A stretch of 64,000 nt of DNA from an uncultured Actinomycetota bacterium (GCA_963730085.1 CAVSQI010000012.1:14466-78465), one strand, 5' to 3'; positions 31,698-43,110 are shown, counted from the first letter of the stretch. Numbers and translations are program-made. The notes: a model not told the origin generated them from the sequence alone.

Positions 31698-32537
31698 ATG
31701 AGCCGTTCCGATGTCCTGGTGGACGCTGATTGGGTCGAGGCCCATCGCGACGACCCTGGTGTCGTCTTGGTCGAAGTGGACGAAGACACCAGCGCCTACG
31801 ACAAGGGCCACATCCGCGGAGCCGTGAAGCTCGACTGGAAGAAGGACCTGCAGGACCCCGTTCGCCGCGACTTCGTCGACCGGGCGGGTTTTGAGGCCCT
31901 GCTGTCGGAGCGCGGCATCTCGAACGACGACACGGTGATCCTGTACGGCGGCAACAACAACTGGTTCGCCGCGTACGCGTACTGGTACTTCAAGCTCTAC
32001 GGCCACAACAACGTCAAGCTGCTGGACGGCGGCCGCAAGAAGTGGGAGCTGGACTCGCGCGAGCTCGTGACCGAGGTGCCGTCGCGCCCGGCTACCAGTT
32101 ACAAGGCGCAAGAGCAGGACAGGTCTATCCGGGCGTTCCGCGATGAGGTGGTCAACGCCATCGGCAGCAAGAACCTGATCGACGTGCGGTCCCCGGACGA
32201 GTTCGCCGGTCGCCTCCTTGCGCCCGCGCACCTTCCGCAGGAGCAGGCACAACGCGGCGGGCACGTGCCGACAGCCAGGAACGTCCCCTGGTCCAAGGCG
32301 GCGGAAGACGACGGCACATTCAAGTCGGATGAAACCCTGCGGACGCTCTACGGTGACGCGGGCGTCGACTTCGCCATCGACACCATCGCTTACTGCCGGA
32401 TCGGCGAGCGCTCGGCTCATACCTGGTTCGTGATGCACGAGCTGCTGGGTCAGCCGAACGTCAAGAACTACGACGGCTCCTGGACCGAGTACGGCTCGCT
32501 GGTCGGCGTTCCGATCAAGCTGGGTGATGAGTCATGA
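31698..32537 (+). CDS. thiosulfate sulfurtransferase (tandem rhodanese)
   Basis: RBS gaggagga precedes the start. Contains LVDADWVEAH...DEDTSAYDKGHIRGAVKLDW...NNWFAAYAYWYFKLYGH and the active-site loop IAYCRIGERSAHTWF. Confidence 0.9.
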   Translation: MSRSDVLVDADWVEAHRDDPGVVLVEVDEDTSAYDKGHIRGAVKLDWKKDLQDPVRRDFVDRAGFEALLSERGISNDDTVILYGGNNNWFAAYAYWYFKLYGHNNVKLLDGGRKKWELDSRELVTEVPSRPATSYKAQEQDRSIRAFRDEVVNAIGSKNLIDVRSPDEFAGRLLAPAHLPQEQAQRGGHVPTARNVPWSKAAEDDGTFKSDETLRTLYGDAGVDFAIDTIAYCRIGERSAHTWFVMHELLGQPNVKNYDGSWTEYGSLVGVPIKLGDES

Positions 32538-32854
32538 GCGAGGCGGCTCAGGCTACCGCGGCGGGATGTGGCGCGCCGGCTGGCGGAGCGCCCGTCAAGG
32601 ATGCTGGCAATCAGGCCATCGTTCAGGGCCGGGTGACCAAGGGCGGGGCCCCGGTGCAGGTCGGATACGCACGGTTGCTCAACTCTGGCGGCGAGTTCGT
32701 GGCCGAGGTGCCGCTGGGGGAGGACGGCGGATTTCGGTTCTTCGCGGCGCCAGGTGACTGGACGCTGCGCGTGCTGGCGCCCGGCGGCATAACCGCCGAT
32801 CGAGGCGTGACCGCGGCGATCGGCGAGATCCGGGAGCTGCAGGTCGCCGTCTAG
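32534..32854 (+). CDS. DUF1416 domain-containing protein (SseC-like)
   Basis: 106-aa protein with IVQGRVTKGGAPVQVGYARLLNSGGEFVAEVPLGEDGGFRFFAAPGDWTLRVL. It overlaps the rhodanese stop, as in the cysA-sseC pairs. Confidence 0.8.
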   Translation: MSEAAQATAAGCGAPAGGAPVKDAGNQAIVQGRVTKGGAPVQVGYARLLNSGGEFVAEVPLGEDGGFRFFAAPGDWTLRVLAPGGITADRGVTAAIGEIRELQVAV

Positions 32855-33268: not shown

Positions 33269-34393
33269 ATGGGGACCGCGAACGTCGGCTCGCCAGTGGC
33301 GGCAGACGATAGCGACCCAGGGGGACGGGCCGCCAGACACAGCGACGCCACGTCCGTCGACAGCGCCCGGAGCGACCGGACTGCGACCAGCACCGGCCGG
33401 CGCGGCAGCAGCTCACGAGCATCGCGTCCCGGTCGGCCGGGAAACGGCCAGACGAGGGCCGCGAGGTCCGCGGTCAGTGTGCTCGCCGACCGGCTCGCTG
33501 CAGCGCTGGTACACCACGAGCCCGGCTGGCGGTTGCCCCGGCACTCAGCCCTGGCCCGCCGGTACAACGTCAGCACGGCCGAGATAGAAGCGGCAGTCGA
33601 GGAACTTGTGAACCGGCACCTGGTCCGGCGCCTCGCTGACGGCCAGGTATATCGCGCCAGCCCGGCCGAGTACGTCATCGACCTGGAAGGCATTTCAGGC
33701 CTGGCCACTCGCCTAGACGCCATGGGCGCCGAGTTCGCGTGTCGCAGCCGCCAGCTGAGCTGGCGGCTGCCGCCCGAGGACATCAGCTGGGCGCTCCGGA
33801 TGGAAGCCGATCAGCAAGTCTGCGTTGTCAGGTACCTCTGGACCGCCGATGCCGCGCCCGCCGCACTCCTCACCACTTATGTCCCCGGTGACATCGCGTC
33901 CAAGGCCGACAACGGGCTGACGGCTGCGTCTCCGAGTGTCCTGAACCTCTTCAAGCTCGCCGGCGGACCGGGCGCAGTCTCGGCCGACGTCGTGGCGGCG
34001 GACGCTACGGTCGGCCCCGCGTCAGTCGACGCTCCGAGAGTAGGCGCGGTGGCGGCAGGCGCGGCCACGGTAGGCGCGGCCACGGTAGGCGCGGCGACGG
34101 TAGGCGCGGACGGTAGGCGCGGCGACGGTAGGCGCGGCGACGGCGCGGATCTCGAGCTGCAGGCTCCGCCACCGTCGATCGCGCGCAGCCTTCGCCTCGG
34201 CGCCGGCCAGCCGGCCACGATCGTGACGATCCGGTTTGACGACGTTGCCACCGATCGGCCCATCGCCTTGACAATCGCTGTGCTGCGGCCGGAGATGTTC
34301 CGGCTGGTGCTGGAGAGCCCCTTCCATCCGCCGGCGGATTCGGGCAATCTGACAGGTTCGTGGACACGCGCCGTCGAGGGCTGGGAACCTTGA
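33269..34393 (+). CDS. GntR/HutC-like transcriptional regulator with a long disordered N-terminus and an internal tandem repeat
   Basis: The wHTH is LADRLAAALVHHEPGWRLPRHSALARRYNVSTAEIEAAVEELVNRHLVRRLADGQVYRA. A UTRA-like C-terminal half follows (VCVVRYLW...ATIVTIRFDDVATDRPIALTIAVLRPEMFRLV). Confidence 0.55.
   Translation: MGTANVGSPVAADDSDPGGRAARHSDATSVDSARSDRTATSTGRRGSSSRASRPGRPGNGQTRAARSAVSVLADRLAAALVHHEPGWRLPRHSALARRYNVSTAEIEAAVEELVNRHLVRRLADGQVYRASPAEYVIDLEGISGLATRLDAMGAEFACRSRQLSWRLPPEDISWALRMEADQQVCVVRYLWTADAAPAALLTTYVPGDIASKADNGLTAASPSVLNLFKLAGGPGAVSADVVAADATVGPASVDAPRVGAVAAGAATVGAATVGAATVGADGRRGDGRRGDGADLELQAPPPSIARSLRLGAGQPATIVTIRFDDVATDRPIALTIAVLRPEMFRLVLESPFHPPADSGNLTGSWTRAVEGWEP
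34040..34149 (+). repeat. 15-bp tandem repeat (about 7 units, one unit only 13 bp) inside the GntR-like gene
   Basis: The unit is GTAGGCGCGGC(C/G)ACG. It is read as VGAAT x3, then after the 13-bp unit at 34100-34112 as DGRRG x2. Confidence 0.85.
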
Positions 34394-34400
34394 CTCCGAT

Positions 34401-35783
34401 ATGCGCACGAATGTGGGGATGGCCCGTCGCCGGTCGATGCGCTGGCGTCTTGATGACCACCGCGACCCGGGCGTCGGCTTCCGCCCGGGGGAGTTACCCG
34501 CTGGGCTCGCTACCGCGGCGATCGTGGGCCAGCTTCTGTTCGCTCCCGTGATGCTGCTCGGTGCCATGGCGCTGGTCATCGTCGGCCGCGTGTCCCGCTG
34601 GCGCCCAACTTGGCTCGCGGTGACGACGGCCGCCAGCGTCATCTGGTTATTCGCTAGCGGGCTGCTTCCGCCTGTGGCCGCATTCACGGCGGGGTCACAC
34701 CACTTAGCCAGCTTCGTCCTGGCAGCCGCAACCCACCCGCGAATGTTCGCCCATCCTGGTGTGGTGGTCGCGAAGGCGGCCCAGTGGTCGGCGATGGGGC
34801 TGCTCGTTGCGATCGTCGCCGCGTGTGCCGAGGCGTGGCTCGTGCTGTGGCTTGGCTGGTGGCGGCCGGGCGCGCGGTCGGAATCCCGGTGGGTGTGGCG
34901 GCCCGGCCTCGTAGCTGCCGTGCGCCGCCGGATGTCCGCGGCGGCGCTCAGAGCCGGGCACACAGGCACTCGCGACGGGTGCGCCGTCGGCGTCGCGACC
35001 GAGACCGGCAAGCTAGCGAGCTTCACGTGGGCGGAAGCCATGCACGGCGTACTCCTGACGGGCGCAGACCGCGACGTATCGGGCCTCGCGATTACGTGCG
35101 CAGCGCTCAGGCGCCGCAAGACCGTAGTAGTCCTCGGGTGCGCTGGCCTGTGCGCGGATGCTGGCGCGAACGGCGACCGCGATGCCGTGGCTGACCGCGT
35201 GGTCCGGCTCGCACGATCCTTCAACGTTCCTGTCATCGTGGCCGGCGCTGGCTCCGCTGCTGCGGCCATCGGCCGCGCCATCCGCCGCCGGGAGGCCGTC
35301 CTGATCGCCGCACCCACCGGAGCGCAGGACATGGACAAGATCCGATGCGCCGCCGCCGACCTGACCACGGTGCTCAGCGGCCTGCGGGATCTGGGGTTGC
35401 GGGCCGACTGCCTAGCCTGGCTCGACGGTGTCGAGCTCTTGGATCCCGCGAGCGTGCGCGAGTTGCAGGCGCTCGCCCCGCTGACTGGCGTCGGCATGGT
35501 TTTGAGCACGGCGGATTCCGCCGCCGCCGCGCAGCTGGCGGCCACCACCGCCGTGCTAGCCATCGGCCAGCCCGTCGGCATCGACCTCGAGGTCGCCTTG
35601 GCGGCCCGCCTGCGCGATACGGGCGGATGGGCGCCAGATCCAATCTGGCGCCCAATGAAACAACGCCGGCGCGGGGCTCGCCCGGGCGGGGTCACGATGA
35701 TCGCTTCCTCGTCCGGTCTCGGCGGCTCGCCACGCGCCATCACGCACTGCCGACTTCAGCCGATCACGCAGGCAGACTCGTGA
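34401..35783 (+). CDS. polytopic membrane protein with a degenerate coupling-protein/FtsK-like P-loop domain (component A)
   Basis: About 4 N-terminal TM helices. HGVLLTGADRDVSGLAITCAALRRRKTVVVLGCAG stands where a T4CP has H-hhhh-GxTGSGKT...hhhhDpKG. CLAWLDGVELL stands in place of hhhhDE. It starts 7 nt after the regulator stop. Confidence 0.5.
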   Translation: MRTNVGMARRRSMRWRLDDHRDPGVGFRPGELPAGLATAAIVGQLLFAPVMLLGAMALVIVGRVSRWRPTWLAVTTAASVIWLFASGLLPPVAAFTAGSHHLASFVLAAATHPRMFAHPGVVVAKAAQWSAMGLLVAIVAACAEAWLVLWLGWWRPGARSESRWVWRPGLVAAVRRRMSAAALRAGHTGTRDGCAVGVATETGKLASFTWAEAMHGVLLTGADRDVSGLAITCAALRRRKTVVVLGCAGLCADAGANGDRDAVADRVVRLARSFNVPVIVAGAGSAAAAIGRAIRRREAVLIAAPTGAQDMDKIRCAAADLTTVLSGLRDLGLRADCLAWLDGVELLDPASVRELQALAPLTGVGMVLSTADSAAAAQLAATTAVLAIGQPVGIDLEVALAARLRDTGGWAPDPIWRPMKQRRRGARPGGVTMIASSSGLGGSPRAITHCRLQPITQADS

Positions 35784-37789
35784 GCAGCGTGTGGCCACCA
35801 GTAACTCGAGGCCCGACCGCGCCCTGGCCGCCGCCACGCGGGCGGCTCAGGGCCGATCTGATCTACCTCGGCTGGCAGCCGGTCCCGGCCGTCGCCGAGC
35901 CCGTTCCGCCGCTTCGGCTGAAAGCGTCCGCCGAACCCGACGGCGTCAGCGCGGACTGGATCGCAGCCCAGCGTCGCGAATACAGCAGGCTCTCCCGGCC
36001 GAGCAGGGTGGGTGCCGCAGCCAGCGTCACGGTCGCTGGTGGAATCACCGCGGCCTGGCTGACGGGAGTCGTGGTAGGCGCGTTCGTCCCGCTCGGCGCT
36101 GTCGCGGCCGCGTGCGTAGCCGCCTGGTATGCGCATGCCAGCTGGCGCCAACGCAGGGTGCTCGGCGAGCAGCTGCGCGCCGAGGAACTGCGCGTGGCTG
36201 CGTTCGCCGACGCGCAGCGCAACCAGCTGGCGGCCACTGCGGCGCAGCACGCCCGCGAAGCCAGCGCCTGGAAGCAGCGAAGCACGGCGATGCGACTCCA
36301 GCCGCGCTGGTATCCCGTCACGATGCCGACGACGGTGCACCGCATCGATATAGCTGGCGGAACGCTCGCAGGGTGGTCCGCGGTCCTGACGATGATCGCC
36401 GCACCCCGGCTCGCGGCCGGGGCCGAGGTGACGGTGCTGGATCTCACCGAAGGTGGCGTCGCGACCGACCTCCTCGCGGTCGCTCGCGGGGGCGGGGTCG
36501 CTCCGCTCGTCTGGGTATTGCCCGGCGACCTTCCGCAGCTCGACCTCGGCACGCAACTGGCGCCAGACATCCTGGCTGACGTTCTCGCCCAGACCGTCAA
36601 CGCCGCCGATGGCCCAGCCGGCCCGGGCGCAGCCGTTCGGGCCGACCCGGCCGGCGACGCGGCCCTGATCGCAGGCGTCTTCCAGGCGCTCGGCGGCAAC
36701 GCCACGATGCCGCAGCTAATCGCCGCTTTGCGGGCGCTCGGACAGATCGGCGGTCCAGCGGAGCACCTTGGCCGTGGCGGCCTCGCGCACAACCAGCTGG
36801 CTAGCTTGACCAACCTCGCCGGCCGAGCCGCTGGGCACCTCGCCGCCGAACGGGCCTGGGCCATCGAGGCGCGACTGCGCGCACTCGCGGCGCTGGGAAC
36901 GTCGGCCGTGAGCGTGCCAGCCAGTCGGCTGACGGTGGCCTGGCTCGACCGGCGCGCAGCTGTCGTGACCAACGCAGCGATCAGGGCCTATCTGGCGATC
37001 GCGCTGACGGCGGCGCTTCGGCAGGCGCCTGCGGGCACGTTCTGGCAGCGGACGATCTGCCTGCTCGGCGCTGAGCGACTGCCAGGCGGCGTCCTGGACC
37101 GGCTGTGCGACGCCGCCGAAGTCGCGGGCGCCGGGCTCGTCCTTTGTTACCGCTCGATTCCGCCGCACGTGCGGGAGCGGCTTGGCCGCGGCGACGCCGC
37201 GGTGGGATTCATGCGGCTCGGGAACGCTGACGACGCCCGGTTCGCGGCCGAGCACATCGGAACCGAGCATCGGTTCGTCGTGAGCCAGCTAACCGACACC
37301 GTCGGGTCGTCCGTCACCGACACGCTCGGCATGTCTTACACCAGCACCGTCGGCACGGCCGACTCCGTCACCGGCTCGGACTCGGTCACGCAGACTGCTG
37401 GCCGCAGTCGCGGCCGCCGGACCGGCGCCGTCGGGCCGTCGCCGATCGCCGACGTGAGCGGATCGGCCAGCCTGGATACCAGCGCGTCAGCCGCCGTCTG
37501 CGACTCGCGGTCTATCACCGCCGGTATCAGCACCGGCACGTCCTGGGGCTGGACGACGTCTCGTGCCATCGGCGGCACCGACTCGGCGGGCATGACTATG
37601 CAGCGGTCCCGCGAATCGCTCGTCGAGCAGCACGAGCTTCAGCAGCTACCGCAGAGCGCGGTACTGCTGTGCTACCCGGGACCGGGCGGTCGTGAGGTCC
37701 GACTGGCTGATGCCAATCCGGCCATCATCGGGCTGCCGACCGCGACGCTGGCAGCCCGGCCGCCCCTGCGTGCAGTCTGGCCATCGTGA
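35780..37789 (+). CDS. TraG/VirD4-like coupling-protein homolog with eroded Walker motifs (component B)
   Basis: The GTG start overlaps the stop of A (GTGA). It has a two-TM hairpin and a coiled coil. RIDIAGGTLAGWSAVL...EVTVLDLTEG replaces Walker A, and TICLLGAERL replaces Walker B. The C-terminus RLGNADDARFAAEHIGTE, a Ser/Thr/Gly-rich tract, then LPQSAVLLCYPG resembles T4CP tails. Confidence 0.5.
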   Translation: MSSVWPPVTRGPTAPWPPPRGRLRADLIYLGWQPVPAVAEPVPPLRLKASAEPDGVSADWIAAQRREYSRLSRPSRVGAAASVTVAGGITAAWLTGVVVGAFVPLGAVAAACVAAWYAHASWRQRRVLGEQLRAEELRVAAFADAQRNQLAATAAQHAREASAWKQRSTAMRLQPRWYPVTMPTTVHRIDIAGGTLAGWSAVLTMIAAPRLAAGAEVTVLDLTEGGVATDLLAVARGGGVAPLVWVLPGDLPQLDLGTQLAPDILADVLAQTVNAADGPAGPGAAVRADPAGDAALIAGVFQALGGNATMPQLIAALRALGQIGGPAEHLGRGGLAHNQLASLTNLAGRAAGHLAAERAWAIEARLRALAALGTSAVSVPASRLTVAWLDRRAAVVTNAAIRAYLAIALTAALRQAPAGTFWQRTICLLGAERLPGGVLDRLCDAAEVAGAGLVLCYRSIPPHVRERLGRGDAAVGFMRLGNADDARFAAEHIGTEHRFVVSQLTDTVGSSVTDTLGMSYTSTVGTADSVTGSDSVTQTAGRSRGRRTGAVGPSPIADVSGSASLDTSASAAVCDSRSITAGISTGTSWGWTTSRAIGGTDSAGMTMQRSRESLVEQHELQQLPQSAVLLCYPGPGGREVRLADANPAIIGLPTATLAARPPLRAVWPS

Positions 37790-37821: not shown

Positions 37822-38652
37822 ATGCTGAGACAGTTCCGCGAGGTGGACGTCTTCACCGACGTGCCGTACCAGGGCAACCCGCTAGCGGTTGTGCTCGGGG
37901 CTGACGGCCTGACCACTGAGCAGATGCAGCGGTTCGCCAACTGGACCAACCTGTCAGAGACCACGTTTGTCCTTGAGCCGAACGCCAGTGCGGCGGATTA
38001 CCGGGTGCGGATCTTCACGCCAAGCCAGGAACTGCCGTTCGCCGGCCATCCGACGCTCGGTACGTGTCATGCCTGGCTGGAAGCTGGTGGCGCACCGCGC
38101 ATCCGCGGAGTGATGATTCAGCAGTGCGAAGCGGGGCTCGTGACCGTCAGCGCCGACGAAGACGGCTTGAAGTTTGGCGCGCCCCCGCTCATCCGCTCGG
38201 GTCCAGTGGATGAGCAGCTCGCCCGGCACATCGCGGAGATACTCGGGGTCAGTCGCGACGAGATCGTCGACGTGCAGTGGGCCGACAATGGCCCGGGCTG
38301 GATCGCCGTACTTCTCGCCAGCGCCGACGCCGTACTCGCGGTCAAGCCTGGGCCGACCGACTTGGATCTCGGCATCGCCGGGGCTTACCCACCCGGTGGG
38401 CCAGCGGCGTTTGAGGTGCGTGCCTTCGTGCCGAAGAACGGCAGCACAGACGAGGATCCCGTCACCGGCAGCCTCAATGCCTCGCTAGCGCAATGGCTGA
38501 TCGCCACCGGCCGCGCCGACCCGCCGTATGTGGTCAGACAAGGAACTGCCCTGGGCCGCCGTGGCCTCGTGCGGATTTCTACCGACGCCGACGGCCAGGT
38601 CTGGGTTGGCGGCGGCACCATCACGTGCGTCTCTGGCACGGTGGACATCTAA
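37822..38652 (+). CDS. PhzF family isomerase
   Basis: Contains MLRQFREVDVFTDVPYQGNPLAVVLGADGLTTEQMQRFANWTNLSETTFV...FAGHPTLGT...EDPVTGSLNASLAQW. Confidence 0.85.
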   Translation: MLRQFREVDVFTDVPYQGNPLAVVLGADGLTTEQMQRFANWTNLSETTFVLEPNASAADYRVRIFTPSQELPFAGHPTLGTCHAWLEAGGAPRIRGVMIQQCEAGLVTVSADEDGLKFGAPPLIRSGPVDEQLARHIAEILGVSRDEIVDVQWADNGPGWIAVLLASADAVLAVKPGPTDLDLGIAGAYPPGGPAAFEVRAFVPKNGSTDEDPVTGSLNASLAQWLIATGRADPPYVVRQGTALGRRGLVRISTDADGQVWVGGGTITCVSGTVDI

Positions 38653-38715: not shown

Positions 38716-41700
38716 ATGGCAGCGGAGTCAGGCATCGGTGGCGGCGCGGCCGGGCTCTGGTATCGCGTCCAGGCTGTCAGCCAGCGCAGCCTCGGTGGCG
38801 GCGCCGATGGCGACTATGCCTCGGTGCTGCCTGCTGCCCTGAACGCGGCCCGGCATCGGTTGCCGTTCATCGCTGGCTGGCTGTCGCTGGGTGGCGGCGC
38901 CCCGCTCGAGCTCGTCACTAATGCTGGCCCGCTGCCCGCCCCAGGGCTGCCTGCCCGGGCCCGGACGGCTGACAACGCCGACAACGCCGACGGCGCCGAC
39001 AGAGCCGATGGGGCCGATGGGGCCGCTGATCCCGCCCACAAAGCTGACGCGGGCGCCCTCAGGCCGATAAGCCGCCGAGGCGCAGGCGAACCGTCGGTGG
39101 TGGCACCGGGCCGCGCCGCGGGCGAAGATCTGCTCTTCCCGTGGGGCGCCCGCGGCGTAGTCATCGACAGGAACATGCTCGCCGATCTTGACCAGCTTGT
39201 CTGGGCGCCGTGCCCGGGACGCCAGGTGGCTCTCGGCGCCGATGCCGTCGCGCGAGCCGCGCGAGCCGCTGGCCCGCCGGGACTGGGCCAGCCGACATTG
39301 TTCGAGTCCGCCCTCCAGACGGTGATGGGCAGGCCGTTTGGCTGGCTGATCGTGGCCGATCCGACCGACCTGCTCGATGCGGAAACCGTTGAGCTGCGCA
39401 ACCAGCTGACGGTGCTGCGCCAGTACGAGGACGAGCACGCACGGTTCGACGCCGACCGGATCCAGCGGCGGCTAGGCGAGCTGGACGCTTACCGCGAGGC
39501 CGGCCTGTGGAACGTCCGCGTCCTGGCCGGAGCCGCGACCGAGCAGGAGCTACGGCTGATCGCTCCGGTGCTGGTCGGCGCCGTTGACCTGAGCGCGCAT
39601 CCGTATCGGCTCCGGTGCCCCGACGGTGCCCAGGAGTTCGCCGACGTGCTGGCGGCCAGGACTGCCGACCCGGCGGACGGGTCCGCAGTCCCGTTTGCGG
39701 CTACCGCTGGGGTGCTCGTGGCGCTGACCGGCCTGCCGGAGCGAGAAGTGCCGGGCGTTCGGGTCATGCAACCCGGCTACTTCGACCTGACCAGCGAGAC
39801 GCCCGCCGGGCCGTCCATCGAGCTTGGAACCATCCTGGACGGCCAGGACCGGCCGGTCGGTGCCATGCGGATTCCACTGGCCACGCTCAACCGGCACGCG
39901 CTGGTCGCCGGGGCGACGGGCGCTGGCAAGTCGCAGACGGTGCGCCACGTGCTAGAACAACTGACCGGCGCCGGCGTCAGCTGGCTCGCAATCGAGCCGG
40001 TCAAGTCCGAATACGCCGTCATGGCGGCGCGCCTAGCCGGGACGGCAGAAGGTTCCGGAGTCGCCGCGGGTGGTGGCAGGTCGGTCACCATCATCAACCC
40101 GGCCGACCCGGAGTCGGTGCCGCTGTCGGTCAACCCGCTCGCGCCCGAGCCCGGCTACCCGGTCCAGGCGCATATCGACATGGTCCGCGCGCTGTTCCTG
40201 GCGGCGTTCGATGCCCCGGAGCCGTTCCCGCAGATCATGTCCCAAGCGCTGCAGCGCTGCTATGAGGAGTGCGGCTGGGATCCGCTGACGGGAGCCGGGC
40301 CGAGCCGATGTCGACGTCCCGCCCGCGGTGCCGACGCTGGCCAGGCTCCAGGCGGCGGCGCTCGCTGTGATCGAGGACGTGGGCTACGGCCGGGAACTGC
40401 AGGCCGACATGCGGGGCTTCGTCGACGTTCGGCTCAGGTCGCTACGGACCGGCTCGGCTGGCCGCTTCTTCGAGGGTGGTCACCCGGCGGACATCGCCGC
40501 GCTCCTGGATCGGAACGTGGTCCTCGCGCTCGAGGACGTCGCCAACGACGAGGACAAGGCGTTCGTGATCGGCACCTTGATCATCAGAATGGTCGAGCAC
40601 CTACGCCTGCGGTCGAAGACCGATCCGGCTGACGGCCTCCGGCACGTCGTCGTGCTCGAGGAAGCGCACCGGCTCCTGCGCGCGGGGCGGACGGGCGCGA
40701 GCGCGCACGCCGTGGAACTGTTCGCTGGCTTGCTCGCGGAAATCCGTGCCTACGGCGAAGGCGTCGTGATCGCCGAGCAGATCCCGGCCAAGCTCGTGCC
40801 CGACGCGATCAAGAACACTGCGCTGAAGGTGCTCCACAGGCTGCCGGCGGCTGACGACCGCCAGCTGGTGGGCGCCACCATGAACTTGGACGCCGAGCAG
40901 TCTCGCCAGGTGGTGTCCCTGGCGCCCGGCGAGGCGGCGGTCTTCGCCGATGGCATGGACCGGCCGATGCGGGTCCTGGTCCCGTTCGGTGGTGACCGCG
41001 AGCGCAGCCCGGGCGCCCTGATCAAGAGCGGCAACGCGCCGCTAGCTGGCCGGAGGTCGGCGGCGTGCGGCCGCGGTTGCACGGGCACGCGGCCGTGCAC
41101 GCTCGTCGAGATTCGGGCGGCCGACCTTGTGGCGAGATCGCCGGAGGACGCGTGGCTGCGCGTCTGGACCGAGGTGTACGTGCTGGCGCACCTGGTAAAC
41201 CAGCCCCGGCCGCGGGTGCCGGTGCCGCTGCGGCAGCGTTGGGCAGGCCTCGACGGTCGCCTGCGCGAATGTGCACTCGCGACGGCGATCGACGGCGCCG
41301 CTCTCGGCCGTGGTCAGGCCCTCCGCGAGTCATACGATCCGGCGAAGCTATCGGCGGCGTGTGCCGAATCGGCCACTGCGATGCTCGACGGCGGCAAGGG
41401 CGCCGGCACTCGGCCCGGCACGACGTGGGTGATTCCGCAGCTTCGGTGGCTCCATGAGCTAGAACGCGTCTGCCCGCACGACGGTCCCGCGCCGGATCCT
41501 TTCGCCGCGGCTCCTGCCCTCGACTACGGGCTGCCCGACCTCACCGACCGTGCCGATGTCAAGATCGGCCAGCGTGTCAGCGGCTTGCGTCGGCATCCGC
41601 TGTCGATGGAGGTGACGCGGAACCGGCTCATTGCCTGGACTGCGCTCCTCGGTGAGGACGATCAGCGCGCGTTCATCGAGGACCTCGCGTTCGTCGCCAT

Positions 41701-41860
41701 CGGCGTGAGCCATCGCGGTCAGCTTCGCAAAGCTGCTGGTGAAATGGGAGTGACCGGGTGGCTTGAGGCCGTGCTGTCCTGGCCCCGGCGCTTCATCGTC
41801 GGGTCGGACGACCAGGCGGCCAGTCTCGAGACCCGCGAGCCAGACCCAGTGGCCGGATAG
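38716..41860 (+). CDS. HerA/FtsK-superfamily (DUF87-like) ATPase, about 1040 aa (component C; frameshifted near 40297)
   Basis: RIPLATLNRHALVAGATGAGKSQTVRHVLEQL gives a HerA-type barrel-to-Walker-A transition. Walker B is LRHVVVLEEAHRLL. VVIAEQIPAKL is also present. The N-terminal approximately 420 aa and C-terminal approximately 270 aa have no motif I recognise. Confidence 0.7.
38971..39024 (+). repeat. 9-bp in-frame tandem repeat (6 units, Asp-x-Ala) in the ATPase N-terminal region
   Basis: GACAACGCC GACAACGCC GACGGCGCC GACAGAGCC GATGGGGCC GATGGGGCC encodes DNADNADGADRADGADGA. Confidence 0.85.
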
Positions 41861-41871
41861 CATCGGCCCAC

Positions 41872-43110
41872 ATGAGCAAGCTTCCGCTGCGCGCCCGCCT
41901 CGCGACGTCCCTGAGCGGGGCGGCGGGTCGCGTGTCCCGCATGACTGGCCGTGGCGACGGCTCGGTCATCGGTGGCGTGCTCGGCCTACGGGTCGAGCCT
42001 GAGCTGCTCCGGCTGCTGGCGGCCGATCGCCAGGTGGTGCTCGTCACCGGTACCAACGGCAAGACAACAACCACGCGGCTGATCACGGCCGCACTCGGCG
42101 CGCTCGGTCAGGACGTCGCCAGTAACGCGTTCGGTGCCAACATGGCGGCTGGCCTAGCCTCGGCGCTCGGCCGCTCTCCCGACGCGCCGTACGCCGTCCT
42201 GGAGACCGACGAGCGATACCTGCCAGCTGTCATCGAGGCCACGCACCCTCGGGTCGTGGTGTTGCTCAACCTGAGCCGAGACCAGATGGATCGTGCGGCC
42301 GAGATATGGCTCACGGCCCGGAGGTGGCGGCAAGCGCTCGCCATCGCGGAAGGCTGCGTCGTCGTCGCGAACGCCGACGATCCGCTGATCGCCTGGGCCG
42401 CATCGACGGCTCCCCGGGTGACGTGGGTCGCTGCTGGGCAGCGCTGGCATGAGGATTCCTGGTGCTGCCCCGAGTGCGGGTCGCATCTGCGGCGCGACGA
42501 GCTGGGCTGGCGATGCGGTGAGTGCGGTTTCGCGCGGCCCTCGACTCGATGGGTGCTGAGTGGCGACTCGGTCATCGACGAGTCCGGCCAGATGCGCGAG
42601 CTGGCCCTGGCCCTGCCGGGCCGGGCGAACGCGTCGAACGCGGTGATCGCGCTCGCCGTGGCGAGCCAGTTCGGCGCGACGGTCGACCAGGCACTGCCAC
42701 GCGTGCGCAGCGTCAAGTCCGTCGCGGGTCGCTACACCCAGGTGCAGCGGAACGGCAAGCTTGTCCGGCTGCTGCTGGCCAAGAACCCGGCCGGCTGGCT
42801 CGAGGCGTTCGACGTGCTCGCGCCGATCCCGGCGCCGGTCCTGCTCGCCGTCAACGCCCAGACGCCCGATGGCAAGGACACGTCGTGGCTGTGGGACGTC
42901 GACTATCGAGTGCTCATTGGCCGGCCTGTGTACGTCACCGGGGAACGCCGGATCGACCTTGCAGTCCGGCTGGAAGCAGATCAGGTTCCGTTCGAGCTTG
43001 TCGACGGCATCGACGATGCCGTCGGCCGGGTCATCGGCGGTGAACTTGACGTCATCGCCAATTACACGGCCTTTCAGCAGATCCGGGCAATAGTTGGCCG
43101 GACCGAGTGA
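41872..43110 (+). CDS. murT: lipid II isoglutaminyl synthase subunit MurT (Mur ligase family)
   Basis: Contains VVLVTGTNGKTTTTRLI, a Cys4 ribbon CCPECG...CGECG, and a DUF1727-like C-terminus DGKDTSWLWDVDY. gatD follows. Confidence 0.85.
   Translation: MSKLPLRARLATSLSGAAGRVSRMTGRGDGSVIGGVLGLRVEPELLRLLAADRQVVLVTGTNGKTTTTRLITAALGALGQDVASNAFGANMAAGLASALGRSPDAPYAVLETDERYLPAVIEATHPRVVVLLNLSRDQMDRAAEIWLTARRWRQALAIAEGCVVVANADDPLIAWAASTAPRVTWVAAGQRWHEDSWCCPECGSHLRRDELGWRCGECGFARPSTRWVLSGDSVIDESGQMRELALALPGRANASNAVIALAVASQFGATVDQALPRVRSVKSVAGRYTQVQRNGKLVRLLLAKNPAGWLEAFDVLAPIPAPVLLAVNAQTPDGKDTSWLWDVDYRVLIGRPVYVTGERRIDLAVRLEADQVPFELVDGIDDAVGRVIGGELDVIANYTAFQQIRAIVGRTE

Follow-up and report, generated by a model that had tools for sequence, protein, structure and literature searches.

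Can two adjacent genes that resemble type IV coupling proteins (T4CPs), and that have both lost the residues expected for ATP hydrolysis, still be working genes, and if so, what might they do? This question is raised by a locus in a 64,000-nucleotide stretch of DNA, here called the window, from an uncultured Actinomycetota bacterium (GCA_963730085.1 CAVSQI010000012.1:14466-78465). The window has ~70% G+C and is actinobacterial in character, its nearest relatives being uncultured Streptosporangiaceae/Actinomycetota metagenome-assembled genomes (MAGs). Gene A (34401 to 35783, + strand) opens with ATG and encodes 460 aa, and gene B (35780 to 37789, + strand) opens with GTG and encodes 669 aa; the GTG start of B overlaps the TGA stop of A in the sequence GTGA, in keeping with the translational coupling proposed in a first-pass annotation. 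That annotation had further suggested that A and B are paralogs with eroded P-loops, retained as noncatalytic scaffold or receptor subunits for an adjacent active ATPase, here termed C. Comparison with related loci, numbered L001 to L122, established A and B as conserved, selected, and membrane-anchored pseudo-ATPases of the FtsK/HerA/T4CP fold, and from their genomic context we infer a scaffold or receptor role.

The first-pass annotation had taken the length of the two open reading frames (ORFs), in a sequence it regarded as riddled with indels, as evidence that they are genes; neither part of this argument survived. A spurious 573-aa ORF runs antisense over A (34022 to 35743, - strand), so a long open frame at 70% G+C is uninformative about gene reality; the frame of B is also open upstream of its start, giving an 814-aa extended ORF (35345 to 37789, + strand). 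An independent contig, 98.8% identical, contains no indel over A, B, and the PhzF gene that follows them, and the sole local frameshift is an extra G in C. A and B are instead considered real genes on the basis of their homologs, their third-position G+C content (GC3), and the ratio of nonsynonymous to synonymous substitution rates (dN/dS). Homologs of A number 112 and those of B more than 1310 (90%-clustered database), with relatives of B in at least 505 species genomes, while GC3 is 0.82 for A and B alike and 0.83 for the downstream gene MurT. Median dN/dS values (Nei-Gojobori, 45 ortholog pairs) were ~0.36 for A, ~0.26 for B, ~0.2 for C, and ~0.15 for MurT, showing that purifying selection, for which the first-pass annotation had proposed a check, acts on both genes and is more relaxed on A. 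The 98.8%-identical pair by itself gave a dN/dS of 0.82 from just 22 substitutions, which is too noisy, and the 45 pairs were used instead. A reading of A and B as pseudogenes in decay, or as frames that are open by chance, could be argued from the tendency of high G+C to yield long spurious frames, from the rapid evolution of A and its loss of a domain, and from the ratio in this closest pair. Against this stand the broad distribution of B, the presence of A at 73 of 73 informative loci, dN/dS values well under 1 across the 45 pairs, invariant motifs, and confidently predicted folds, and the explanation was rejected as having next to no likelihood.

Neither protein could be placed by sequence models. 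No Pfam or NCBIfam match was obtained for A or B even at an E value of ≤1, nor any PADLOC match; PDB sequence searches with family profiles returned nothing meaningful, and when diverse B relatives were scanned one by one against Pfam, only stray subthreshold matches appeared. The motif [AG]xxxxGK[ST] is absent throughout A, B, and 118 aligned relatives. As far as such models go, neither A nor B is a member of the T4CP, FtsK, or HerA family. The AlphaFold2 models, however, both contain the core of the FtsK-HerA superfamily (a strand, the P-loop position and a helix, followed by the Walker-B strand and the sensor strand), and the cytoplasmic domains are accordingly predicted by modeling to be FtsK/HerA/T4CP-superfamily P-loop (additional strand catalytic glutamate [ASCE]) folds. 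The first-pass annotation had staked its proposal on the domains being P-loop NTPase folds, and Foldseek places both A and B in the FtsK/HerA/T4CP superfamily. Its description of the two as paralogs holds for the shared fold; for direct A-B paralogy, hhalign gave no significant sequence support (E value of 0.03).

Hydropathy and the AlphaFold2 model agree on three or four N-terminal transmembrane (TM) helices in A (aa ~34 to 154), and the model shows a cytoplasmic domain (aa ~170 to 455) with an FtsK/HerA fold from which the P-loop is absent. The predicted local distance difference test (pLDDT) score of the model is 77, rising to ~90 in the cytoplasmic core. Foldseek matches include a SIR2-associated HerA (8woc; E value of 6.5e-5), the B204 packaging ATPase of Sulfolobus turreted icosahedral virus (STIV), EssC-D3 (6tv1), TcpA, and EccC ATPase 2/3; E values for HerA, STIV B204, and EssC-D3 range from 7e-5 to 1e-3, with a probability of 1.0 to HerA, B204, EssC, and EccC. 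From the model and the ortholog alignment, the eroded Walker A region was assigned to 35046 to 35138 (+ strand), consisting of GVLLTG-ADRDVSG, a conserved helix (AALRRRK), and a strand (TVVVLG). Within it, GVLLTGADRDVSG occupies aa 216 to 228 (nt 35046 to 35084), and the order of elements in the model, strand 217 to 220 (VLLT), loop GAD, helix 224 to 237, and strand 241 to 246, is that of a P-loop position. Arg239 and Lys240, on the helix after the loop, are invariant. The Walker-B position, GLRADCLAWLDGVE (aa 332 to 345, nt 35394 to 35435, + strand), was assigned from the modeled strand CLAWLD (aa 337 to 342), which is followed by G-V-E345. Across the A family this segment reads L.W(I/F/L)(S/D/N)(G/Q/H)CE, in which the position of the canonical Asp is variable, and it is the sole match between the A and B profiles in hhalign.

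An alignment of A orthologs drawn from 80 loci shows how this site has changed. The P-loop column reads GADRDVSG, a shortened form, in the window and its close relatives, and GSPGSGTT or GAGGSGTT, with Lys replaced by Thr, in many distant orthologs; the ortholog at L059 has the canonical GAADSGKT. This gene, in a Streptosporangiales MAG (L059:7990-9858), has its Walker A motif at aa 215 to 222, and its product passes the Pfam model TrwB_AAD_bind (22.5 bits against a cutoff of 20.5) over the P-loop segment itself. Its sequence marks it as a surviving intermediate stage in the erosion that A of the window has undergone. Orthologs of 600 to 750 aa also retain an all-alpha insert that A of the window lacks. 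A is a lineage-specific third component of the locus, a younger one that is still decaying from a T4CP-like protein in which both a genuine P-loop and an all-alpha insert were present.

B begins with a conserved cytosolic motif, PRGRxRADLxYLGW, followed by two TM helices (aa 81 to 118) and a stalk helix of ~50 aa reaching aa ~173 (hydropathy and model), after which the model shows a T4CP-like domain into which a helical segment (aa 262 to 369) is inserted. The pLDDT score is 70 overall and 80 to 95 in the core. The best Foldseek match is TrwB (1e9s; E value of 1.2e-5, TM-score of 0.49 on the target), with others to HerA, Cag-beta/VirD4, VirB4, TdpA, and DotL (E values of 1e-5 to 4e-4, probability of 1.0). 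By model and alignment, the degenerate Walker A site HRIDIA-GGTLAGWS (HRIDIAGGTLAGWS) lies at aa 187 to 200 (nt 36338 to 36379, + strand), between strand 188 to 192 (RIDIA) and helix 196 to 212, with Trp199 in place of Lys and Leu in place of the middle Gly. AGGTLAGWS is invariant across 39 close relatives of B, and R.D..GGxxxxGW is retained in 26 distant relatives (~25% identity), where the Trp is rarely replaced by Cys, Asn, or His and never by Lys. The degenerate Walker B site RTICLL-GAERL is at aa 424 to 434 (nt 37049 to 37081, + strand), with its strand at aa 424 to 429 and a family consensus of hhhhGA(D/E)xL. A sensor-strand region, GLVLCYRSIP, together with the conserved FMRLGNxxDARxAAEHIGTEHRF, was assigned in the same way to 37133 to 37276 (+ strand), GVVIAEQIP being the counterpart of GLVLCYRSIP in C; in the model it comprises strands 452 to 457 (GLVLCY, then RSIP) and 473 to 478 and helix 483 to 496, with FMRLGNADDARFAAEHIGTEHRF at aa 477 to 499.

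Statistically, the hhalign comparison of B with the C family is nonsignificant, yet its path sets IAGGTLAGWS on VTGATGAGKS, TICLLGAERL on HVIVLEEAHRL, and GLVLCYRSIP on GVIIAEQIP. Relative to C, B has therefore exchanged the Walker Lys for Trp, the acidic pair EE for Leu-Gly, and the sensor Gln for Arg, and all three elements of catalytic competence are missing; the P-loop of A has been either lost or left degenerate. The only two Lys residues of B (48 and 165) are both outside the ATPase-like domain. The motif strings that the first-pass annotation had quoted for A and B are all present at their positions, and its naming of the Walker sites was correct: they fall on the strand-loop-helix and Walker-B strand of the models and, on the hhalign path, correspond to GATGAGKS and VLEEAH in C, while the counterpart of the A site in some orthologs is still GxxGSGTT or an intact GAADSGKT. 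Its claim that catalytic residues have been lost likewise stands, as no intact Walker motif occurs elsewhere in A or B.

Beyond the ATPase-like core, B contains a Ser/Thr/Gly-rich insertion (aa ~502 to 614, nt 37283 to 37620, + strand) that is predicted to be disordered (pLDDT of <50 over aa 492 to 614) yet is conserved. This insertion of ~110 aa is conserved position by position and was found in all distant relatives, with S502, Q503, T505, G509, T515, P555, T587, W589, and G590 near-invariant. A C-terminal beta-hairpin, QRSRExLVEQHELQQLPQSAVLL ... LADANPAIxxLPTATL (37601 to 37750, + strand), was assigned from the model and invariant columns; QRSRESLVEQHELQQLPQSAVLL is at aa 608 to 630, and the strands span aa 627 to 634 and 637 to 644. 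Distant relatives have RVYExxVEPxxLQxL...CNPxI here. The first-pass annotation had read this C-terminal architecture as that of the coupling-protein family; the strings are present as described, and the module belongs to the B family itself and is not a T4CP hallmark. A profile search found 902 clusters of B relatives at 50% identity, the cultured hosts including Plantactinospora, Micromonospora, Amycolatopsis, Pseudonocardia, and Nonomuraea, and all are annotated as hypothetical. B belongs to a large, ancient actinobacterial family with a fixed Trp at the Walker-A Lys position, usually paired with a HerA-type ATPase.

That ATPase is C (38716 to 41860, + strand), a HerA/DUF87-type protein by Pfam, of ~1050 aa in relatives. 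It matches HerA_C (39.5 bits; cutoff of 22) and DUF87 (25.0 bits; cutoff of 23.2), and phmmer aligns it with HerA in the PDB at 4.6e-10. Its Walker A (GATGAGKSQ) and Walker B (VVLEEAHRLL) motifs are both intact, and hydropathy detected no TM helices in it. In the window, C is split into 38716 to 40632 and 40328 to 41860 by a 1-bp insertion of G within a GGG run, at ~40297 to 40299. Orthologs are one protein of 1,023 to 1,068 aa with DUF87, HerA_C, and a C-terminal DUF8350, and they run uninterrupted through GAGRADLEVPPAVPTLARLQ at this site; the frameshift probably reflects a sequencing error in the homopolymer and not a pseudogene. By its motifs, C is a genuine and catalytically intact HerA/DUF87 ATPase, which bears out the expectation of an active ATPase next to A and B. 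The best PADLOC matches of C are defense HerA models and mad8 (3e-19), and it matches the NCBIfam model CedD, a "DNA-translocating ATPase", at 9e-12, far under the cutoff. NurA, SIR2, and DUF4297 were not found in the flanks, where PADLOC matches were confined to C. The N-terminal region of C at 38971 to 39025 contains 9-bp and 18-bp tandem repeats encoding an Ala/Asp/Gly/Asn repeat (ADNADNADGADRADGADGA) and varies among orthologs.

Within the clade of the window, gene order is GntR/UTRA, A, B, (PhzF), C, MurT, GatD. A is upstream of B at all 73 informative loci, and C is downstream of B at 64 of 80. Seven species (L047, L069, L038, L048, L061, L063, and L083) keep A and B without C within 5 to 10 kb downstream, with MurT 260 to 374 nt after B at L047 and L069; in these, C has been either lost or relocated. 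Beyond the clade, B adjoins a DUF87/HerA_C/DUF8350 gene, in tandem or divergently, in each of the eight contexts looked up, with no A homolog in any of them, and a metagenome scan gave further cases of B-C adjacency, with exceptions. ORFs that appear to fuse A with B or B with C (L011, L015, L018, L048, L094, and L096) were dismissed as read-through artifacts of high G+C; L094 and L096 were checked directly and have B and C in different frames, and the same artifact was assumed for the other four.

The remaining genes of the locus lie on the same strand. A GntR/UTRA (HutC-type) regulator (33269 to 34393, + strand; Pfam UTRA E value of 6.5e-7 and GntR E value of 4e-4, with NCBIfam HutC-type matches) ends 7 nt upstream of A and is also found upstream of A in relatives. 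Its start is uncertain, as the ORF opens at TTG 33002, while ATG 33269 suits the orthologs of ~330 aa. At 34040 to 34143 this gene contains a 15-bp tandem repeat of ~7 copies (89% matches) encoding GAATV/GDGRR-type repeats in the region of the effector-binding domain. A PhzF-family isomerase (37822 to 38652, + strand; Pfam PhzC-PhzF, 2e-54) separates B from C in closer relatives only; in more distant clade members (L004 to L083 compared), PhzF is absent or other insertions of 1 to 6 kb are found between B and C. MurT (Mur ligase/MurT_C; 41872 to 43110, + strand) starts 12 nt past C and is probably cotranscribed with it, and GatD is next in relatives. A scan for promoters and terminators gave no signal above chance, with no terminator-like sites between the genes, and the locus appears to be a single operon of the GntR/UTRA regulator, A, B, PhzF, C, MurT, and GatD. 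B identity tracks MurT identity across loci (Spearman 0.84, n = 52), indicating vertical inheritance. Farther upstream, a pstBSCA operon lies between a rhodanese/DUF1416 pair and the regulator in relatives (L001:3776-7838 and L003:3680-7895); it is absent from the window, where the regulator follows DUF1416 (32534 to 32854) almost directly.

In loci outside the clade, a walk along the strand of C was used to collect the genes downstream of it. The gene directly after C often overlaps the C stop codon, and a small, immunity-like ORF often follows. Recognizable products were a colicin-E5 RNase (L084:14922-15844), a TNT NADase (L085:14913-17053), a colicin-E3 "Cytotoxic" RNase with DUF6980 (L087:2168-4831), and a DddA-like deaminase (L096:5156-5977; 4e-26), and the downstream proteins of six further loci had no Pfam match. 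All 11 downstream proteins have disorder-prone N termini in which P, E, D, S, T, Q, G, K, R, and A make up 76 to 93% of residues, with net charges from -1 to -129; a signal peptide is absent from the four toxins. PADLOC returned no match for the downstream toxin-cassette genes or for B relatives. The proteins of L087 have SGW(K/R/E)AGAPP repeats in common, and a C-terminal module is shared by the 336-aa protein of L122 and the 787-aa protein of L088. A family of ~150 aa without a Pfam match follows the acidic-leader genes at three unrelated loci (L110:22-255, L118:4432-5330, and L122:5205-5684), and its members are possibly immunity proteins or chaperones. In Nonomuraea endophytica, a 233-aa protein encoded between B and C (L089:9202-9900) has a motif, KGINTRW...FEVQFHT, that recalls RelA/SpoT-type small alarmone synthetases, a resemblance not confirmed by Pfam. 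The main comparative survey of polymorphic toxins (Zhang/Aravind) does not describe a HerA-linked route, and further literature searching found nothing relevant; a 2026 Esx/epibiont preprint was rejected as a description of A-B-C, as it concerns the type VII secretion system (T7SS).

Taken together, we think it somewhat probable that A and B are noncatalytic subunits that serve the HerA motor C as a membrane portal or adaptor; as to the substrate, export of proteins or toxins is our leading guess. B, joined by A in the lineage of the window, would assemble into membrane rings that act as portals or adaptors and offer a docking site to the hexamer of C, and ATP would be hydrolyzed by C alone. 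Pseudo-ATPase subunits are known within single-chain motors such as EccC/EssC, and the scheme draws on the parallel with these T7SS proteins, where one active domain is accompanied by degenerate ones, and with T4CPs at the secretion channel. More speculatively, the translocated polymer may be a protein with an acidic, disordered leader, including polymorphic toxins in other Actinomycetota, and such leaders might resemble polyanionic DNA and be threaded across the membrane by the motor. A fuller version, which we hold as tentative and, as a whole, rather doubtful, is that the B-C pair, with A as a lineage addition, is the core of an undescribed HerA-powered protein export system of Actinomycetota. 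Here, a Trp-for-Lys pseudo-ATPase ring would be the portal and a HerA/DUF8350 hexamer would thread substrates by their polyanionic, DNA-mimicking leaders, the cargo being toxins (TNT, colicin E5/E3, and DddA-like) in Micromonospora, Plantactinospora, and relatives and a cargo of unspecified kind in the Streptosporangiaceae-like lineage. At the locus of the window, the context is a small-molecule-sensing GntR/UTRA regulator, with MurT/GatD adjacent.

Several observations weigh against the portal reading. C is missing beside B at seven clade loci whose flanks extend for 5 kb or more and at the distant loci L100, L103, and L105 to L107, and in the window itself it is frameshifted. No toxin or acidic-leader gene stands beside the locus in the window's own clade, and the toxin link comes from a small, unsystematic sample with four recognized toxin domains in ~16 loci. 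The A-B, B-C, and A-C profiles are nonsignificant in hhalign (E values of 0.03 to 0.4), so homology rests on fold and local motifs. Finally, an acidic residue is conserved two positions past the Walker-B strand in both families (x-G-x-[D/E]), and some residual nucleotide binding may thus persist.

The toxin genes and the kinship of C also invite other explanations. B and C, with or without A, could be a HerA-based anti-phage or abortive-infection system, in which a HerA hexamer senses invasion and frees or activates a toxic effector (an NADase, RNase, or deaminase) held by an antitoxin, with A and B tethering or regulating it at the membrane. In known HerA defense systems (SIR2-HerA and DUF4297-HerA), the effector that accompanies HerA is an NADase or a nuclease, and the TNT, colicin E5/E3, and DddA-like effector types beside C fit this pattern; the PADLOC matches of C, the presence of PDB entries 8woc and 8uae among the fold matches of the A and B models, and the variable neighborhoods in distant lineages point the same way. 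However, A, B, and all their neighbors lack a PADLOC match, and the locus in the window's clade is vertically inherited, has a fixed housekeeping position, and contains no effector gene. Effectors with long acidic disordered leaders and immunity-like ORFs behind them are a pattern met more typically among polymorphic toxins that are exported, and an obligate transmembrane partner of T4CP fold is not a feature of known HerA defense systems. We regard a defense role as unlikely, though worth keeping in view.

Translocation of DNA across or at the membrane, as by T4CP/TraB/FtsK or archaeal Ced (in conjugation-like transfer, uptake, or segregation), with A and B as channel or anchor subunits, would suit the close structural relatives, all of which are DNA or nucleoprotein pumps (TrwB, HerA, VirB4, TdpA, and the STIV packaging ATPase). 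It would also suit the subthreshold CedD match of C, the match of an A ortholog to the TrwB coupling-protein model, and the precedent of Streptomyces cmdABCDEF, which is conjugation derived and affects chromosome segregation (PMC2782261). In the flanks, however, genes for a relaxase, VirB4, TraB, a nuclease (NurA), or any other conjugation function are absent; the genes that recur in linkage are those of toxin/immunity cassettes and not of mobile elements; and the locus is chromosomal and vertically inherited, which makes this explanation quite unlikely. A last alternative concerns the pseudo-ATPases themselves: A, B, or both might bind and perhaps slowly hydrolyze nucleotide through noncanonical residues, as regulatory ATP sensors rather than inert scaffolds. 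The glycine-rich loop geometry of B is kept and invariant (GGxxxGW[S/A/E]), the acidic residue after the Walker-B strand is conserved in both families, and A keeps the invariant R239-K240 pair on the helix after its loop. Degenerate EccC/EssC domains bind ATP without turnover, and EssC-D3 (6tv1) is a top fold match of A. The phosphate-binding Lys is nevertheless absent family-wide, the bulky Trp of B would fill the phosphate site, and the loop of A is shortened, with both its sequence and its length varying among orthologs, which argues against a conserved ligand site; nucleotide sensing is considered very unlikely.

The locus has several implications. Across an entire widespread family that neither Pfam nor NCBIfam models, and whose genes lie beside a HerA motor, Trp has become fixed where the Walker lysine would be, and the family offers a clean natural system for asking what role dead P-loop rings play. 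The decay of A, from an intact P-loop through a Lys-to-Thr change to a deleted loop and the loss of the all-alpha domain, is a stepwise record of the passage from ATPase to scaffold. Should the toxin linkage reflect export, antibiotic-producing actinomycetes would have a new pathway for secreting interbacterial toxins and, if true, C would be the first HerA-type homolog of DNA pumps to move proteins.

Among known systems, Streptomyces cmdABCDEF (SCO4126 to SCO4131) is a membrane cluster derived from conjugation genes, with several membrane proteins and one membrane-associated ATPase of the FtsK/HerA superfamily whose Walker lysines are essential (PMC2782261). It resembles A-B-C in being an actinobacterial chromosomal operon of membrane proteins with one such ATPase (PMC2782261). 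CmdB, however, is ~500 aa and resembles VirB4-type conjugation genes of plasmid SLP2 (PMC2782261), and the five small membrane proteins differ from the content of A-B-C, a comparison made by description only; on that description, the cluster was set aside as an equivalent, being VirB4-like, conjugation derived, and of other composition (PMC2782261).

The HerA systems (HerA-NurA, SIR2-HerA, DUF4297-HerA, and MADS) are linked to the locus by C, which is HerA/DUF87 at the sequence level, and by the common fold of A and B, and in them HerA commonly acts together with a toxic effector and with a partner that is not itself an ATPase. Here, the partners are instead transmembrane pseudo-ATPases of the same superfamily, with no NurA, SIR2, or DUF4297, and C has an extra N-terminal region of ~360 aa and the C-terminal DUF8350 domain. 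T4CPs (TrwB/VirD4/TraD/Cag-beta/DotL) have, like B, an N-terminal anchor of two TM helices followed by a cytoplasmic FtsK/HerA-type domain; both proteins of the window have an N-terminal TM anchor (three or four helices in A, two in B). The all-alpha domain inserted in the T4CP domain may have a counterpart in the modeled helical insert of B, whereas A of the window lacks an insert that its orthologs of 600 to 750 aa keep. The role proposed for A and B is likewise that of a membrane receptor or portal handing substrate to the translocation step. Unlike T4CPs, A and B have neither a canonical Walker A (GxxGxGK[ST]) nor a canonical Walker B (hhhhDE), and in the window they match no T4CP hidden Markov model, the Pfam models being T4SS-DNA_transf, TrwB_AAD_bind, and TraG-D_C; the A ortholog at L059 alone passes TrwB_AAD_bind. 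Over ±10 kb in relatives, and in the examined flanks of the window, no Pfam family of type IV secretion systems or relaxases occurs. The ATPase they partner, of HerA type, is soluble and a protein of its own, and the conserved 110-aa Ser/Thr-rich insertion of B is absent from T4CPs.

The EccC/EssC ATPases of the T7SS share with A-B-C the combination of one competent ATPase unit with several degenerate, membrane-anchored units of FtsK/HerA fold in Actinobacteria, and they serve the export of toxins, a likeness that is speculative on the side of A-B-C. They differ in that A, B, and C are separate polypeptides rather than one chain and that the active unit is HerA/DUF87-like; none of the three has an FtsK_SpoIIIE match above threshold, there are no WXG100/LXG substrates, and the flanks contain no ESX genes (EccB/D/E). 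The resemblance of A-B-C to EccC/EssC is functional and architectural only.

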